Of a stretch of 64,000 bases of DNA, positions 2,251 to 22,344 are shown piece by piece; within the stretch, counting starts at the first letter, position 1, and each line of letters starts with the position of its first letter. The DNA comes from Candidatus Moraniibacteriota bacterium. Lineage in GTDB: Bacteria > Patescibacteriota > Minisyncoccia > Moranbacterales > GCA-2747515. Location of the stretch: assembly GCA_040772365.1 (NCBI GenBank), contig JAXGYI010000001.1:5416-69415 (forward strand). The letters are read 5' to 3'. Made by a program: the position numbers and the translations under genes. The notes below the pieces were generated by a model. It searched no databases and had not been told where the DNA came from. It saw only the letters and a program-made list of their open reading frames with translations.

Positions 2251-4176
2251 TTATGAATTCATTTCACGCATTGTCTTCCTTGCTTCTCTGGCAGCTATTC
2301 TACTACCACCTTTCTCAAATGCAACTTGCTCATCAGTATTCATGGCATCCATAAAATCCTGCTGACTTCGCGCACTCCTGAGATTCTGATATCGATCATA
2401 AACGAAGTTAAAATCGTCTCGATATTGCGGATTTTCTTCGGCGCCATATTCCTTGATCGCCTTTTGTTTTGCAAGAGTTTTCACTTCCATCTTACCATAC
2501 ACATTTTTCAGTGCCTGCTGCCGTATCTCCGCAGAACTCAAGCTTACCTGACCCATTCTTGCCTTTTCTGCTTCCTTTTTTGTAATCTCACTCACCTCTA
2601 GTTGTACGACATTGTGTCCATAACCACTTTCGCGCATCTTCCTCTTTACAGCCTTTTGTGTTTCAGTATCAAGTTTATCAAATGTTTTGATAAGTTCATC
2701 AACCTCCTCATTTAATAAGTCCACCCTCTTTTCCGAGAGGACCTGTGCTTTTGCCTCACTACCAATATCCGTTGCTGTATTAATTGGCGCTTCCCGCATT
2801 TTCTTCTTTTCTTCTTCAATTTTCTTACCCTTGCTCCTCTCCAGCGCCTTTTTATCACCACCCGCCCACTCTGGACCTATTGAAACACCACGTGCAATAG
2901 ACTCATCTATAGTTGATTGATATTGCCTTGCAGACTCATCCTTGAAATTCCTTGCACGCGTCGGTAAACTACGTAAAACAGACATACCCTTTGCAACCCT
3001 TCTATCTAATGCACTATTTTCATTATTCGCCATATAATTAACCCCAGATCCAACAAGGCGATCCGTTGCCCTCCATCCCAAAACGGCACCTCCCTTACCA
3101 AGTCTCTGAACCCTATTCCTCGCCTTACCTGCCATATTTAATGCAAAACCCGTGCCTTCCGCACCAACTTTTTGCGCAGCAATAATCGCCCCCCACATCA
3201 CAAGAATAGCAATTAAATACTGCAACAATGTAAAAACAATATTAGAAGACACGCTATTCTCACCGGACACTGTTTTTGCTGCACCCCAAATTTGCATCTG
3301 CCCCAACTCATCCAAGATGGATATGGCTAATATAATGGCAAATAATGTAATAGGACCCACAAGTAGCTGCTTTGTAAAACCACTCCACCATTGAGAGGAA
3401 TACGACTGTGTTGAGGGAAATGCTGCCATGACATAACCAGCGGACGCAAAGATGAGATAGATTGTTAACGCCACAACACGCACAATTAAAACCATTGCAA
3501 TTGTACCAATGGTTAAGAGGAAGATGATGCCGACAATAATCCCCATGATCAGTGATTGATAGACACCCTCTTTATTCATTTGAAGTTTATGTCCTTTGAA
3601 ATAAGCATCTCCGATAACCAGTTTTGCAAATTGCGTCCTATCGGCAAATTTTCCCATAATACCACTCCCTGTCACACCACCACTTCCACTATTACCACTC
3701 CCATGAAGAATATACGTCATGGTAACGTTGGATACATCCACCAAGACGCGCGTGATTGGCCATGAGAAATTCACCAAAAGTGCCATCACAATAATCATCA
3801 CCCACGTATTGCGAATATGATAGCGCGAAATTTGAAAAACCGTGCAAAATGCGGAGTAGAGAAGGAAAAAGATAAAAAACATATTCAAAATATCCCGCAC
3901 TGTCTTCCATCCGGTATATACCGCACGATTATTCAAAATATCCATAACCTGCGGTTTCAATGTTAAATCAATCAGTGAAACAGCTAGAGAAATCAGCCAT
4001 CCTATAAGCCCAATAATTGCCAAAAATAGATTACCGACAAAATCTTCAATACCTAATGCTCCGCCGCCGGTAGCCTTTGGGTCTCCAGATCCAATATTTG
4101 CCTGCGCATAGGAAACCTGTACACACAAAAAGACTTGTGTAATAATTAATAGGATAAAAATTATTCTTTTACTCAT
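2251..4176 (-). CDS. Putative TrbL/VirB6-like polytopic membrane protein (641 aa)
   Basis: N-terminal signal peptide (MSKRIIFILLIITQVFLCVQVSYAQA), multiple hydrophobic helices, and a C-terminal E/K-rich hydrophilic domain. Located next to the PrgI-like gene. Confidence 0.45.
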   Translation of the reverse strand: MSKRIIFILLIITQVFLCVQVSYAQANIGSGDPKATGGGALGIEDFVGNLFLAIIGLIGWLISLAVSLIDLTLKPQVMDILNNRAVYTGWKTVRDILNMFFIFFLLYSAFCTVFQISRYHIRNTWVMIIVMALLVNFSWPITRVLVDVSNVTMTYILHGSGNSGSGGVTGSGIMGKFADRTQFAKLVIGDAYFKGHKLQMNKEGVYQSLIMGIIVGIIFLLTIGTIAMVLIVRVVALTIYLIFASAGYVMAAFPSTQSYSSQWWSGFTKQLLVGPITLFAIILAISILDELGQMQIWGAAKTVSGENSVSSNIVFTLLQYLIAILVMWGAIIAAQKVGAEGTGFALNMAGKARNRVQRLGKGGAVLGWRATDRLVGSGVNYMANNENSALDRRVAKGMSVLRSLPTRARNFKDESARQYQSTIDESIARGVSIGPEWAGGDKKALERSKGKKIEEEKKKMREAPINTATDIGSEAKAQVLSEKRVDLLNEEVDELIKTFDKLDTETQKAVKRKMRESGYGHNVVQLEVSEITKKEAEKARMGQVSLSSAEIRQQALKNVYGKMEVKTLAKQKAIKEYGAEENPQYRDDFNFVYDRYQNLRSARSQQDFMDAMNTDEQVAFEKGGSRIAAREARKTMREMNS

Positions 4177-17496: not shown

Positions 17497-18136
17497 AGAG
17501 ATGCTATAAAAAGGATAGTTGTATGCGTGTTTTTATACAATACACGATGGTGTCTGTCTCGATCAAAGTTGTGGTGTGCCCCATAGTATTTTCTGTGCGC
17601 GTGTTGTATAAAATCAATGCTTGCTCTAGTTTTTAGGTCTCTGTGACTAATATCACAGGTCGAAAAGTGTGTACGTGGAAGTTCTTTGCGGATGTCACCA
17701 CCCCAGATCTCAGAAAAATCATTCTTGCTATGTGGTACGCTCTGGTGCTTCTTTCCAGTTGGCACAAACTGAGTACAGTACAGTGTATGTTGTAGAAAGA
17801 AAATGCGATGGGAGATAGGCCATCACAGCAATGGTGGCTATGCGTGCAGTTGATAACGTGAATACTACAGATAGTGTGTAAAGCCTTTCTTTAAAGGCTC
17901 TTCCCTATTTTTAATGTAGCATACTATGAATAGACGTGTAAAGTGCGATTTTCATGACGAAATAATGTGCTACATAGCACGTCAACTCACTCAATGTAGT
18001 AACGTAAAATCCATGGATTGCTGTGTGATGTTGTAACACGTGGACCTATAGATGGGTAAGTTCCTCACTCTCTACAGGCTTCTATCAGTGTAAACCCTTG
18101 GTTTAAAGAGATTTTTGGTGAGATTTTTATGAGAGG

Positions 18137-18208
18137 TGCCCTTGGGAAGAATCGAACTTCCATCTAATCCTTAGGAGTGATTTGTTCTATCCATTGAACT
18201 ACAAGGGC
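18137..18208 (-). tRNA. tRNA-Arg (CCT) lying inside the long rbfA-nrdD intergenic region
   Basis: GCCCTTGTAGTTCAATGGATAGAAC, anticodon loop CTCCTAA, T-arm GGAAGTTCGATTCTTCC, acceptor CAAGGGC+A. There is an A-G mismatch at the bottom of the anticodon stem. Confidence 0.7.
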
Positions 18209-18372
18209 CTGGGGGACCCCCCCTTCCCTTTATTGTAGCGATTTTTCTGGAATCTTTCAATGAGGCTACGCAAGTGGTTATTATTAAAATATATTACATA
18301 AAATATGTCAAGTTTAAAATCCCCTATTTACTACACATTCTCTATAGTTGCACGATAATATTCTTCTCACCA

Positions 18373-19084
18373 TGTTCCACGTGGAACAGTGTGTATGCGA
18401 ATATATTTTCTACGAACTATGCAGTTTTTCCTTCTCGATTAAGAATTATACAATGATCTTTTAGTGATTTTTATAGGGTATTTGTAAATTTTTCATGTTC
18501 CACGTGGAACAATAAGCGAAAAGTAGTAATTTAGGGTTTTTCAGGATGTGTTCAGGTCATGCATATAGTATGATCTTTCCATTGTTCCACATGGAACAAT
18601 GGAAAGATGGGGTAATCTATAAAATAATATACTTACCTATGTTCAGATACTTAGTTTATTGGAGAGCCTAATTTTTTAGGGAAAAATTATACGCAGTATA
18701 CCACAAAATATATCTTTGGATCTTTTTGATAAAAACTTTCTTTGAATTTCATATTGTTCCACGTAGAACAAAATAAAGAACTATAAGGTGGGGGCTTTAT
18801 GGAGAAATACCACTAAAAGGTTCCACGTGGAACATTTTAGTGGGCGTATAGCGCATAAGATGCACTTTTAAGAGAATCTATCAAAACCTTACTTAGGGAT
18901 ACTGTTCTACGTGGAACAGTAAGTTAAGTTAAAATAACGCTCTTGATCTAGGTGTGGGATTTTTTTGTGAAGACGTATCGTTCTTTCAAGATATATATTT
19001 AAGAAATAACACAGTATTATCAAAAAAGCATTTTTAAAATCTTTATAAAAAGGATATTCTGAGCGCAGTGTTCCACATGGAACA
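18373..19084. repeat. Array of seven dispersed copies of a 16-bp palindrome (consensus TGTTCCACGTGGAACA) in the non-coding region upstream of nrdD
   Basis: Copies at 18373-18388 and 18496-18511 are perfect. Copies at 18582-18597 (CACATG core), 18755-18770 (1 mismatch), 18819-18834 (GGTTCC...), 18903-18918 (1 mismatch) and 19069-19084 (CACATG core) are variants. Spacings are 123, 86, 173, 64, 84 and 166 bp. Copy 3 extends to a 32-bp palindrome (18574-18605) and copy 5 to a 34-bp palindrome (18810-18843). Confidence 0.9.
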
Positions 19085-19237
19085 GTGTGCAGCGGTGTGC
19101 ACAGAGATATAATCGAAAAATTGCCCTTGTGGTATGATTGGATATAAAACCACAATATATAGTATGTTTGCATATCCTGTGGATAGGCTTCGCTTGCATC
19201 GGTTTTTTGAAAGTGCTACAATGAAAATGTTCAAAAG

Positions 19238-21406
19238 TTGAAAAGGGGTAAGAGTTTTTTCTTGCTTTTTTCTTTTATGCCAAAAACCCATATGACAGCA
19301 ACAAAAATCAAAAAACGAAATGGAACAATTGTGGATTTTGATGTGCGTAAAATTGAGCGGGCAATTACGAAGGCCGCAGAGGCGTCGCGCCCAACAAAGA
19401 AGATGGATGCCAAAAAGGTTGCGCAGTATGCGGTAACACGAGTTGGCAAAAAGTATGGCGATGCAATTCCTACTGTGGAACAGGTGCAGGATGCTGTGGA
19501 GGAGTCTCTGATTAAACACAATTATCCACAGGTGGCGAAGGATTATATTCTCTATCGACAGAAACGTACGGAAATACGTGAGGATCGCAATGTGATGGTG
19601 GATGTGGAGAAAACCATGGGAGAATATCTTGATCAAATCGATTGGCGGGTTAATGCGAACTCTAATCAGGGGTACTCGCTGGGCGGAATGATTTTGAATA
19701 CTGCAGGAAAAGTAACTGCAAATTATTGGTTGTCACATATGTATCCAAAGGCAATTGGCGATGCGCATCGCAATGCGGATGTGCACATTCATGATCTTGA
19801 TATGTTTTCTGGTTACTGTGCTGGTTGGAGTCTACGCGCGCTTTTAGAAGAGGGATTTAATGGTGTAGATAATAAAATTGAGTCCAATCCACCTAAGCAC
19901 CTCTCTAGCGCTGTGGCGCAAATGGTAAACTTTTTAGGAACACTGCAAAATGAGTGGGCGGGTGCACAGGCATTCTCTAGTTTTGACACCTATTTAGCAC
20001 CATTTGTCAAAAAAAAGGAGATGGAGACACGTGCTGCAATCAAAAAATATAAAATGACTTTTCCGTCGCCGAAACACAAAAAGGAATACATTCATAACCT
20101 CGTCTATGATTATGTGTACCAGAACATGCAATCATTTGTCTTTAATCTTAATATTCCGTCGCGCTGGGGGACACAAACGCCATTTACCAACATTACATTA
20201 GATTGGGTTTGTCCACCTGATCTCAAAAAAAAGACACTCCTTTTAGGAGGTAAGCCATTTACACACACATTCGGGGAGCTCCAGAAAGAGATGGATATGA
20301 TTAATAAAGCATTTATTGATGTGATGATGGCAGGGGACTCCAAGGGGCGTACGTTTACATTCCCAATTCCAACATATAATATTACGAAAGACTTTGATTG
20401 GGAGGATGAAAAGGTGTTGCCACTGTTTGAAATGACTGCGAAATATGGTACACCCTACTTTCAAAATTTCATTAATTCAGATCTTGATCCTGGTGACGTG
20501 CGATCCATGTGTTGTCGATTGCAGCTAGATCTCAAGGAGTTGCGTAAGCGCGGCGGTGGATTATTTGGATCTGCGGAAATGACGGGATCTATTGGTGTAG
20601 TGACAATTAATTTGGCACGTATTGGTAAGATGACAGCGGGTGACAAAGAAGCGTTTTTGGAGCGCGTAACGTATTTGATGGAACTTGCAAAAACATCACT
20701 AGAAATTAAGCGAGAGGTTATTCAAAAGTGGATTGATCGTGGGCTTTTCCCCTACACGCGGCGGTATCTCGGAACACTTAAAAATCATTTTTCTACGATT
20801 GGTGTAAATGGAATGAATGAGGCGATTCGCAATTTTACGAATGATCGGGAAAATATTGCATCGCCATTTGGACAAGCATTTGCCAAAGAGGTCCTAGAAT
20901 ACATTCGTGGGAAAATGTCGGACTTTCAAGAAGAAACTGGTAACCTCTATAACCTGGAGGCAACGCCTGGTGAAGGAACAACATATCGCTTTGCTAAGGA
21001 AGATCAGAAGCGTTTTAAGGATATTTTGCAGGCCGGTACAAAAGAAACGCCATATTATACGAACTCTAGTCAGCTGCCAGTGGGATATACTGATGATATA
21101 TTTGAAGCATTGGATTTACAGGATGATTTGCAGAAGAAGTATACGGGCGGAACTGTGTTTCATGGGTATATGAGTGAGCGCATTAGTTCTGGTGCGGCAT
21201 GTGCGCAGTTAGTGAAAAAGATTTTGACGAACTATCGATTACCTTATATCACCATTACACCAACATTTTCCATTTGTCCAAAACATGGTTATCTAGCAGG
21301 AGAATATGATTTTTGCCCGAGGTGTGATCTCGATCTTGGCATACGCAAGGAGCACTGCGACAGTGAATTTCGCGGACGCTACGAAAGTGCGCATGCGGAG
21401 CGATAG
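19238..21406 (+). CDS. nrdD: Anaerobic (class III) ribonucleoside-triphosphate reductase, large fragment lacking the C-terminal glycyl-radical domain
   Basis: N-terminal ATP-cone (KIKKRNGTIVDFDVRKIERAI); the stretch CCRLQLDLKELRKRGGGLFGSAEMTGSIGVVTINLARIG is typical of NrdD; a C-terminal Zn-ribbon-like CPKHG...CPRCD. The ORF stops about 25 aa after the Zn site without an RVxGY motif. The real start may be the ATG at 19292. Confidence 0.85.
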   Translation: MKRGKSFFLLFSFMPKTHMTATKIKKRNGTIVDFDVRKIERAITKAAEASRPTKKMDAKKVAQYAVTRVGKKYGDAIPTVEQVQDAVEESLIKHNYPQVAKDYILYRQKRTEIREDRNVMVDVEKTMGEYLDQIDWRVNANSNQGYSLGGMILNTAGKVTANYWLSHMYPKAIGDAHRNADVHIHDLDMFSGYCAGWSLRALLEEGFNGVDNKIESNPPKHLSSAVAQMVNFLGTLQNEWAGAQAFSSFDTYLAPFVKKKEMETRAAIKKYKMTFPSPKHKKEYIHNLVYDYVYQNMQSFVFNLNIPSRWGTQTPFTNITLDWVCPPDLKKKTLLLGGKPFTHTFGELQKEMDMINKAFIDVMMAGDSKGRTFTFPIPTYNITKDFDWEDEKVLPLFEMTAKYGTPYFQNFINSDLDPGDVRSMCCRLQLDLKELRKRGGGLFGSAEMTGSIGVVTINLARIGKMTAGDKEAFLERVTYLMELAKTSLEIKREVIQKWIDRGLFPYTRRYLGTLKNHFSTIGVNGMNEAIRNFTNDRENIASPFGQAFAKEVLEYIRGKMSDFQEETGNLYNLEATPGEGTTYRFAKEDQKRFKDILQAGTKETPYYTNSSQLPVGYTDDIFEALDLQDDLQKKYTGGTVFHGYMSERISSGAACAQLVKKILTNYRLPYITITPTFSICPKHGYLAGEYDFCPRCDLDLGIRKEHCDSEFRGRYESAHAER

Positions 21407-21458
21407 AATGACTGATAAATTATGATATACTATAAATAATTAGTAAAAAAATAAAACT

Positions 21459-21650
21459 ATGGCATCACAAGTGCTAAAAGGGGATAATAATGAGGGGCGT
21501 ACACCGTGTGAGGTGTGGACACGTGTAATGGGGTACTTTCGTCCTGTGTCATTTTTCAACACTGGCAAGAAATCTGAACACTATTCACGTAAGCATTTTC
21601 AGGAGTGTGTGAGTGCCAACGAAAGCTTTACCAATAAATATGCTGATTAG
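21459..21650 (+). CDS. Stand-alone glycyl-radical domain (NrdD C-terminal module / GrcA-like), 63 aa
   Basis: TRVMGYFRPVSFFNTGKKSEHYSRKHF closely matches the NrdD glycyl-radical motif (TRVxGYxxxxxxxNxGKxxExxxR). It lies in a different frame from nrdD and is separated from it by about 50 AT-rich nt with stops in all frames. Confidence 0.7.
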   Translation: MASQVLKGDNNEGRTPCEVWTRVMGYFRPVSFFNTGKKSEHYSRKHFQECVSANESFTNKYAD

Positions 21651-22344
21651 CGGGATTCAACCATTTACACTTCTGGATTATCCGGACAAGGTGGCAGCGA
21701 TTATTTTCACCCCAGGGTGTAATATGCGCTGCCGCTTTTGTCACAACAAAGAATTTGTTTTGCCGGAAGAAATCGCCAAAATACGCACAAGCTTCATTGC
21801 GGAAAAGACTATTCTGAATTTTTTGCGATCGCGCAAGGGCAAATTGGATGGTGTGGTGATTTCCGGTGGTGAGCCGACGGTGCAGCCAAACTTGCGGAAA
21901 TTTATTGAAAAAGTGCGCGCAATGGGTTTTTTGGTGAAATTGGACACTAATGGCAACTTGCCGGACGTACTGAAAAGTTTGGTAAAGGATAGGTTGGTGG
22001 ATTATGTGGCAATGGACGTGAAAACGACGCCGGATCGCTATAAGGCGCTTGTTGGTGATATGGCTAATCCAGATAGTGTAGTGAAAAGCATTGCTTTCCT
22101 TAAGAAAAATCATGTACCCTATGAATTTCGTACAACATTGATTGCCGGGGAACACACACCAAAAGTGATCAAGGACATGGCAGATCTCCTTGCAGGTGCC
22201 GATACGCTGTATTTACAGACATTTCGCCCGGAGACGACACTGGATCCGGCATTTGAAGAGAAGGGGTTTATAGCCGAAACTACTGTGAATCGCTATGCGA
22301 ACATTTTTATGAAAAAGAGTGTGCGCTGTGTCTTTTTGCGATAA
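21613..22344 (+). CDS. nrdG: Anaerobic ribonucleotide reductase activating protein (radical SAM)
   Basis: CNMRCRFCHN is a CxxxCxxC radical-SAM motif; it directly follows nrdD. The start may be the internal Met at 21640. Confidence 0.85.
   Translation: MPTKALPINMLISGIQPFTLLDYPDKVAAIIFTPGCNMRCRFCHNKEFVLPEEIAKIRTSFIAEKTILNFLRSRKGKLDGVVISGGEPTVQPNLRKFIEKVRAMGFLVKLDTNGNLPDVLKSLVKDRLVDYVAMDVKTTPDRYKALVGDMANPDSVVKSIAFLKKNHVPYEFRTTLIAGEHTPKVIKDMADLLAGADTLYLQTFRPETTLDPAFEEKGFIAETTVNRYANIFMKKSVRCVFLR

Follow-up and report, generated by a model that had tools for sequence, protein, structure and literature searches.

Organisation of the nrdD–nrdG locus

We analysed a stretch of 64,000 nucleotides (nt) from a Candidatus Moraniibacteriota bacterium (GCA_040772365.1, contig JAXGYI010000001.1, positions 5,416 to 69,415 of the forward strand; hereafter the window). 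It contains a locus for NrdD, the class III (anaerobic) ribonucleotide reductase (RNR), in which the glycyl-radical loop is encoded by a separate small open reading frame (ORF) lying between the gene for the large polypeptide (the body) and nrdG, the gene for the activase. The locus comprises the following features, given in window coordinates with lengths in amino acids (aa) or nt:

19277..21406, + strand: nrdD body (large subunit), 709 aa from ATG 19277
19304..19573, + strand: ATP-cone domain (allosteric activity site) of the large subunit; PF03477, residues 23-112 of the 722-aa ORF, 80.2 bits
21275..21325, + strand: Zn ribbon C-P-K-H-x9-C-P-R-C (Cys667, His670, Cys680, Cys683) on the large subunit, from reading the sequence
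21326..21406, + strand: post-ribbon tail of 26 aa (DLDLGIRKEHCDSEFRGRYESAHAER) and TAG stop; conserved in length and specific to the clade of the Candidate Phyla Radiation (CPR)
21407..21458, + strand: intercistronic spacer, 52 nt, AT-rich, with TAG, TGA and TGA stops across the three frames
21459..21650, + strand: glycyl-radical small subunit, 63 aa, from ATG 21459 in a frame different from that of the body; matches PF13597 positions 532-562
21531..21533, + strand: codon of Gly25 (the glycine of RVMGY), the predicted radical-bearing residue, from alignment to Thermotoga maritima Gly621
21640..22344, + strand: nrdG, radical S-adenosylmethionine (SAM) activase, from ATG 21640; TIGR02495; its start shares 11 nt with the small ORF's end

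The body contains an ATP-cone, a 10-stranded barrel with the finger-loop motif SMCCR, a Zn ribbon and the 26-aa tail. Alternative starts lie at ATG 19292 and, as the mechanical start of the ORF, at TTG 19238 (722 aa); the exact 709-aa body is a called protein in GCA_040769235.1. It has no RVxGY motif and its C-terminus reads ...SICPKHGYLAGEYDFCPRCDLDLGIRKEHCDSEFRGRYESAHAER, followed by TAG, 26 residues past CPRC. Residues 1-13 of the small ORF (MASQVLKGDNNEGRTPCEVWTRVMGYFRPVSFFNTGKKSEHYSRKHFQECVSANESFTNKYAD) form a variable leader; the core, RTPCEVWTRVMGYFRPVSFFNTGKKSEHYSRKHF, follows, and after it a C-terminal extension specific to the CPR (ECVSANESFTNKYAD). Small ORFs of this kind are inconsistently annotated in public records, as 'hypothetical protein', 'oxidoreductase' or 'nrdD' (in some RefSeq records) or not at all. 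The nrdG product of 234 aa is called in public assemblies. The 11-nt overlap between the small ORF and nrdG suggests translational coupling. An earlier note on the window, made from its letters, had described a large ORF ending about 25 residues after the Zn ribbon without RVxGY, and a 63-aa ORF about 50 nt downstream, in another frame and behind stops in all frames, that overlaps the start of nrdG; our figures of 26 residues, 52 nt and 11 nt agree with this description on each point.

Both products tile one NrdD

Against the Pfam family NRDD (PF13597, 562 positions) the body aligned with positions 2-528 (E 1.4e-176) and the small ORF with positions 532-562 (E 1.9e-8; 33.9 bits at a cut-off of 26.2), and the ATP-cone of the body was matched with E 1.7e-22. 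The body also scored 1086.5 bits with NCBIfam NF006126 (cut-off 548) and 468 bits with TIGR02487 (cut-off 326), while the nrdG product scored 196.9 bits with TIGR02495, NrdG2 (cut-off 131.15). On the solved chain of T. maritima NrdD (4COI), the body covers residues 104-608 and residues 13-51 of the small ORF align with 609-647, a match that is weak when taken alone (E 0.18); jointly they cover the solved chain with a gap of 0 and an overlap of 0. Since the alignments abut in this way, the two products tile one complete NrdD. Gly25 of the small ORF, which is invariant, falls on the radical-bearing Gly621 in this alignment, and with the PF13597 match this confirms the earlier reading of the small ORF as a glycyl-radical loop of NrdD type.

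The finger-loop motif SMCCR (C412/C413) and the Zn ligands C667, H670, C680 and C683 are invariant among 24 split pairs. For T. maritima NrdD a Zn site of the type CxxxHx6CxxC has been solved and the radical site is Gly621 (PMC4493059); the Zn site and finger-loop motif in the window are of the types reported there (PMC4493059). The barrel profile, the finger-loop cysteines, the Zn ribbon and an adjacent NrdG, by which the NrdD family is recognised, are thus all present, except that the RVxGY loop does not lie on the polypeptide of the barrel, the body stopping at profile position 528 of 562. By every sequence criterion save a glycine on the catalytic chain, the locus is a class III RNR. In the nomenclature used for Prevotella copri NrdD, the glycyl radical domain consists of the Zn site, the Gly loop and the C-terminal tail (PMC11226230). 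Here only the Gly loop and the C-terminal tail are detached, and the Zn ribbon remains with the body; the earlier statement that the glycyl-radical domain is encoded separately therefore applies to the loop and tail and not to the Zn-ribbon half. From the sequences we consider it highly likely that the locus encodes a naturally split class III RNR composed of two separately translated polypeptides.

The junction in independent assemblies

A stop codon and a change of frame inside a normally single gene are the classic signature of an indel, and the source genome is metagenome-assembled. nrdD might accordingly be one gene broken by an assembly or sequencing error, or a fresh pseudogene arisen by a recent inactivating mutation. 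The exact small ORF was, however, found in four contigs from four samples (GCA_040769235.1 and the Logan assemblies SRR13001968, SRR11702768 and SRR27558881), and in an alignment of the four junctions the stop, the 52-nt spacer and the start were identical, even though one of the contigs represents a slightly diverged strain that differs in the coding parts only. An assembly error over the junction, which the earlier note had proposed to check, is excluded by this agreement of three independent Logan assemblies with that of NCBI. Undoing an indel would moreover restore no single gene, as each of the three frames is closed by stops, and the tail and leader together amount to about 40 extra residues that have no counterpart in fused NrdDs. 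The shared layout in 74 of 80 species genomes and the low dN/dS of the small ORF (0-0.13), both described below, likewise speak against an artefact or a recent disruption, and we assign this explanation a negligible probability.

Conservation and distribution of the split

A search with the small ORF of the window returned more than 1000 homologs, the best 120 of which were all stand-alone proteins of 54-89 aa with the NRDD domain, from Uhrbacteria, Moranbacteria, Magasanikbacteria, Nomurabacteria and others. With the small ORF of Ectothiorhodospira as query, 4771 clusters were obtained; the best 120 were all 51-109 aa long, and the matches include Hydrogenophaga, Roseospirillum, Paracoccus and Thiocystis. 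The core of the small ORF shows 19 invariant columns in 45 sequences, and in the 14 pairs with measurable dS (18 close pairs were compared over a 38-codon core) dN/dS was 0-0.13. The small ORF is under strong purifying selection.

The body tells the same story from the other side of the junction. Among its 120 nearest homologs (72-100% identity), nearly all of about 704-705 aa, none carries the loop, and in 114 of them the post-ribbon tail is 26-27 aa long with the recurring pattern D.ELG...D.E.R..Y.S....K; the tails of proteobacterial bodies are shorter and different. We also searched the body against 1.84 billion cluster representatives (50% identity) and parsed the best 150: an end-of-barrel motif was recognisable in 133, of which 76 are loop-less, ending 16-60 residues past that motif with no Gly motif, and in the other 57 the loop is present in cis. 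In a scan of one genome per species, from which the best 80 loci were retained and classified by script, 74 loci were split, three fused (L045, Obscuribacterales; L050, Actinomycetota; L071, Maricaulis), two were orphan small ORFs and one lay at a contig edge. Three further loci that had seemed fused (L049, L061 and L043) were rejected, the apparent fusions being long spurious frames in high-GC DNA with the body in another frame.

The gene order in the 74 split loci is body, small ORF, nrdG. They come from CPR phyla, many Proteobacteria, one metagenome-assembled genome (MAG) of Elusimicrobiota and one of Atopobiaceae, and include the cultured isolates Ectothiorhodospira shaposhnikovii, Thiocapsa imhoffii, Allochromatium palmeri, Thiohalocapsa marina and Terasakiispira as well as MAGs assigned to Kangiella, Sulfuricella and Azospirillum. 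The small ORF was also found on replicons of Paracoccus, Bradyrhizobium, Allochromatium vinosum and C. metallidurans, and Ralstonia solanacearum has the same layout, with a small ORF annotated as 'hypothetical protein' that overlaps nrdG. In a neighbour-joining tree of the bodies, computed with no support values, the split state occurs in both major clades, and the two fused loci that could be placed both fall among split lineages. Thousands of bacteria share this split; within the NrdD subfamily concerned most members are divided in this way, so that it is no peculiarity of the present genome, and the split is ancient and widespread. The earlier note had favoured a functional split over a disruption, and the 74 split loci among 80, the 120 loop-less bodies out of 120 and the purifying selection support that preference. 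It had also suggested looking for the split in related genomes, where those 74 species-representative loci show it, while an unsplit relative with identical flanks was not found among them, the three fused loci being distant.

Several variants were seen in these searches. Unrelated sequence separates the body and the small ORF in a locus of Magasanikbacteria (L023, 3041-4000; 961 nt, with an apparent coding sequence on the reverse strand) and in one of Peribacteria (L075, 3556-4000; 446 nt). The two bacterial orphan small ORFs (L054, 3959-4186; L080, 3911-4135) have no nrdD nearby; one is flanked by an unknown 287-aa ORF and an alpha/beta hydrolase, the other by a methyltransferase and a B12-binding radical-SAM (DUF4070) gene. 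Many of the nearest bodies in the set P0367-P0516 are 950-1880 aa long and were matched by the query in 3-6 separate stretches, which suggests that they contain multiple inteins. Fused NrdDs often have an extra C-terminal domain of about 110-150 aa past the Gly loop with a CPxC...APTL(V/L)V signature (P0375, P0383, P0391, P0407, P0413 and P0417, and the viral L191-L202 and L228-L242); it looks like a thioredoxin or glutaredoxin, which would fit a thiol-reductant enzyme of the NrdD2 type. A second type of loop-less body, ending ...HGYIPGKHEFCPYPHTEE(D/E)LE(R/K)(F/Y)G..., has CPY.H in place of the second CxxC of the Zn ribbon (P0388, P0393, P0404, P0414, P0420 and P0422, and the viral L219), and may represent an independent split or a different C-terminal architecture.

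The small ORF as an independent cistron

Two ORFs do not necessarily make two proteins, and a single product might be obtained by frameshifting, ribosomal bypassing, read-through or selenocysteine insertion, or by trans-splicing of a split intein. In gene 60 of phage T4 the ribosome bypasses 50 nt, and the 52-nt gap in the window is close to that length; in six proteobacterial loci (L037, L039, L056, L058, L059 and L064), furthermore, the two ORFs share a frame and are separated by a single TGA. Across the loci, however, no fixed recoding site is found. The distance from body to small ORF ranges from a 4-nt overlap to 961 nt, with 142, 232 and 446 nt among the values; counted from the stop of the body to the conserved core, it runs from 2 nt to 961 nt. 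The bodies end in TAA, TAG or TGA, and the relative frame is arbitrary. Every small ORF opens with its own ATG after which follows a leader variable in length and sequence, and a Shine-Dalgarno sequence is present where inspected, as in Cupriavidus necator with AAGGAG 7 nt before the ATG. Orphan copies of the small ORF lie far from any body, and the tail and leader, about 40 residues together, compare with about 130 needed by an intein. The small ORF is an independent cistron, and we regard the synthesis or joining of a single chain as very improbable.

Three narrower candidates were set aside. Selenocysteine insertion or read-through was dropped after loci had emerged with TAA or TAG as the stop, with a different frame or with a long spacer. 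Under code 25 (UGA = Gly) in Gracilibacteria the ORFs stay separate, with small ORFs of 70 aa (L024) and 74 aa (L041). A split by a mobile element was rejected because the 52-nt spacer has no ORF, the spacer content is unrelated between loci and the tail and leader, at about 40 aa, are too short for an intein.

Comparison with GrcA and with other divided reductases

The small protein resembles GrcA (YfiD) and its T4 relative Y06I in being a small, stand-alone radical-loop protein of which phage copies exist. GrcA is charged by the activase of its parent enzyme and acts in trans by entering the large subunit, and the same is proposed here. It rescues full-length pyruvate formate-lyase after loss of the loop to oxygen, whereas the body in the window never had a loop, and the small protein would therefore be an obligate subunit. 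In a Pfam scan of the small ORF at E<=0.1, PF13597 alone was matched and Gly_radical (PF01228) was not. The likeness to GrcA/YfiD drawn in the earlier note thus stands as an analogy of function but not of family (NRDD, not Gly_radical), and the small ORF is the sole loop at the locus and not a spare. According to a review of June 2026, the formate lyases alone among the classes of glycyl-radical enzyme (GRE) have spare-part proteins (PMC13450708).

It might still be argued that the small ORF is a spare of the GrcA type for an intact NrdD encoded elsewhere, with the adjacent body inactive or otherwise employed: like GrcA it is small, free-standing and consists of a radical loop only, and phages carry lone copies, just as T4 carries the GrcA-like Y06I (PMC13450708). 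Within the 64-kb window, however, no second NrdD or other GRE was found. The adjacent body is intact and highly conserved, with its catalytic residues invariant in 24 pairs, and scores far above the NrdD family cut-off, while the conserved order of the three genes and the overlap with nrdG favour an obligate partnership. Cupriavidus metallidurans CH34 is described with a single NrdDG set, Rmet_5137 and Rmet_5139 (PMC2864759), a numbering that leaves one locus tag for a gene between them. We therefore consider a spare for another NrdD improbable and retain the two-polypeptide enzyme as the preferred reading.

The closest known one-piece enzymes with NrdG include T. maritima 4COI, P. copri 8P23 and phage T4 1H79; the class of the one-piece relatives has been named subclass NrdDh in RNRdb and subtype NrdD2 by Wei et al. 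(named in PMC4493059). The split enzyme shares with them the ATP-cone, the barrel, a double-cysteine finger loop (SMCCR here, SCCR in T. maritima), the Cys/His Zn ribbon, RVxGY and a neighbour of NrdG2 type. It differs by a break in the chain after the Zn ribbon and before the Gly loop, the body having gained a conserved tail of 26-27 aa and the loop a start codon, a variable leader and, in the CPR, a conserved C-terminal extension. Functional RNR chains from two adjacent genes are known in the class II NrdJa/NrdJb of Pseudomonas aeruginosa (PMC9669993) and in the NrdA-a/NrdA-b of Aeromonas phage Aeh1, split by mobE (PMC3653736). Those enzymes belong to other RNR classes and are broken at other points, and their detached piece does not bear the radical; the gap in Aeh1 also holds a homing-endonuclease gene, whereas the gap here is 52 nt and empty.

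Copies in viral contigs

An alignment of the small ORF served as query against IMG/VR; of 167 confirmed loci, the best 80 were examined (L085-L164). In 78 of these 80, both an NrdD body and NrdG were absent within 4 kb on either side (tblastn, both strands, E<=1e-3), and we provisionally treat the 78 copies as orphans, as a body could lie beyond 4 kb. Their ORFs are clean, about 50-75 residues long, and retain the full CEVWTRVMGY...NxGKK core. Two have a genuine phage context: L118 (small ORF 3980-4129), with tail-fibre genes on both sides, and L111 (small ORF 3896-4075), which adjoins a tape-measure gene. In the reciprocal scan of IMG/VR with the body, the best 80 of 331 loci included 57 fused, 15 split and 7 that were loop-less within 500-1000 nt; a comparison by eye of the best 80 in each of the two lists revealed one contig in common. 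A viral orphan copy had no tblastn match among the cultured-phage records of INPHARED, so the orphan copies are known from IMG/VR contigs only, and the small ORF of the window gave weak matches only in INPHARED. One 8.1-kb viral locus (L086, IMG/VR 3300028832_000163) has two ORFs of at least 90 aa under the standard bacterial code, and may derive from a phage with a reassigned stop codon.

Cyanophages supply their hosts with the labile D1 protein of photosystem II, and a supply of the radical loop by phages could be likened to this. The small protein might be a free-standing, exchangeable 'radical cartridge' of 6-7 kDa that NrdG charges off the enzyme, that then plugs into a loop-less body and that alone needs replacing once oxygen has cleaved it, with phage copies re-arming the NrdD of the host during infection. 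Drawn as it is by analogy, this proposal seems to us doubtful, if worth stating.

Evidence from Cupriavidus and from structure prediction

The megaplasmid pHG1 of C. necator H16 shows the layout found in the window: it encodes a 676-aa 'ribonucleoside triphosphate reductase' ending in CPRCDEEILARKRDQLAA at the stop codon, and a small ORF of 66 aa, named nrdD by the NCBI annotation pipeline (PGAP), with the sequence MIHHDQSAQFTQSLPGHAALRDEERQPCEVWTRVMGYHRPVSSFNVGKQGEHRERRFFSEPHAIAT; an overlapping nrdG adjoins. The nrdDG locus of this strain has been reported, citing Siedow et al., to be essential for complete denitrification in the genome paper of C. metallidurans (PMC2864759). A locus of the split type is, on that report, required for the anaerobic growth of C. 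necator H16.

AlphaFold2 was run on the concatenated pair. With no alignment the predicted local distance difference test (pLDDT) score was 38.6; with an alignment that had almost no depth over the small part, the body was modelled with confidence (mean pLDDT 80.3), and most 10-residue blocks of the barrel exceeded 85.

Several points weigh against the two-polypeptide enzyme as we propose it. The synthesis of the small protein, its binding to the body and its radical are predictions from the genes. In the AlphaFold2 model of the concatenated pair, residues 692-772 (the tail and the whole small subunit) have a pLDDT below 50, and this part of the model carries no information on docking. The requirement described for C. 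necator is stated in PMC2864759 for the nrdDG locus and is second-hand from Siedow et al. The idea of a replaceable cartridge, discussed in the next section, draws solely on analogy and on the orphan copies in phages. Finally, no recognisable Shine-Dalgarno sequence precedes the small ORF in the window (21433-21458). Such a sequence is likewise absent before nrdD (19252-19291) and nrdG (21614-21639), and the organism may initiate translation largely independently of it.

A model of the two-polypeptide enzyme

In the enzyme that we propose, the body (709 aa) would supply the ATP-cone, the barrel, the finger-loop cysteines and the Zn ribbon, that is, all but the radical site, and the 63-aa protein would contribute the loop with Gly25 and the C-terminal tail. 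By homology, NrdG would abstract the pro-S hydrogen of Gly25, and the loop would insert into the barrel of the body beside the SMCCR finger loop, in the manner of the tethered loop of one-piece NrdD. That the pieces assemble non-covalently, that NrdG activates the small protein and that the loop lies in the barrel we infer from these better-known enzymes. In one-piece NrdD the buried glycine must exit the barrel for activation (PMC4493059), and no part of the protein is more mobile than the glycyl radical domain, which is fully disordered in the dATP-inhibited state (PMC11226230); this mobility and the need to leave the barrel make a non-covalent loop mechanistically plausible. In the CPR the C-terminal extension of the small subunit has the pattern ECVxANxxFxxxY, in which N54 and F57 are invariant. 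It co-occurs with the 26-27-aa tail of the body, and in Proteobacteria other sequences replace both; we infer that the tail and the extension form a lineage-specific docking interface. That the small ORF overlaps nrdG in the window as well as in C. necator and R. solanacearum hints at co-translation of the activase with its substrate.

Oxygen destroys the glycyl radical and cleaves the chain at the glycine (PMC13450708). By analogy, the split may turn an oxygen-labile, self-cleaving radical element into a cheap, replaceable cartridge that is perhaps also more reachable by the activase, since replacing a cartridge of 60 residues would cost less than replacing an enzyme of 770. We advance this rationale tentatively, as a conjecture with slightly more against it than for it. 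A replaceable cartridge would explain why phages carry lone copies.

Region upstream of nrdD

The non-coding stretch upstream of nrdD (18240-19240) is rich in palindromes, and the intergenic region that it occupies is bounded on the left by a tRNA gene:

18135-18208, - strand: tRNA-Arg(CCT), left edge of the palindrome-rich intergenic region

The palindrome (T)GTTCCACGTGGAAC(A), of 14-16 bp, occurs in seven copies within 710 bp (18374-19083) and nowhere else in the 64 kb; 0.17 copies are expected, and none of 100 shuffles reached seven. It is one or two bases off the parS consensus of the Bacillus subtilis type (TGTTNCACGTGAAACA), and the array resembles a densely packed set of centromere sites for ParB. 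The minimum of the cumulative GC-skew lies at about 4 kb of the window, and the region is therefore probably origin-proximal. Two A/T-rich 16-mers, CACAGAGATATAATCG and CACAATATATAGTATG, lie in 19101-19167, about 110-175 nt upstream of the nrdD start; both resemble NrdR boxes.

Significance

To our knowledge, the glycyl-radical enzymes described so far all carry the radical glycine on the chain of the active site, with GrcA as the sole functional exception. We conclude that a split NrdD is real, widespread and very probably functional, and it has apparently not been described as such: no description was found in the full-text literature, including the main RNR phylogeny, surveys of insertions and extensions and the GRE review of June 2026, in a search outside which most subscription journals fell. 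A large RNR survey removed sequences of fewer than 400 residues (PMC9531940), and surveys with such a filter therefore cannot see the small subunit.

The finding has practical and biological consequences. Expressing the 'NrdD' gene of such a locus alone would yield an enzyme that lacks its radical site. The loop would be able to find and enter the barrel untethered, and the split enzyme would offer a natural system for studying how an activase meets a buried substrate, with a peptide of about 60 residues in place of an enzyme of about 700. The split suggests a cheap means of recovery from oxygen damage, which would matter to denitrifiers and micro-aerobes, Cupriavidus, Ralstonia, Paracoccus and Bradyrhizobium among them, and to CPR bacteria. 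If the exchange of radical-bearing small proteins is true, it would stand as the first example, outside the formate lyases, of a spare-part or trans-radical system. The lone copies in phages, if confirmed, would constitute a new class of auxiliary metabolic gene.

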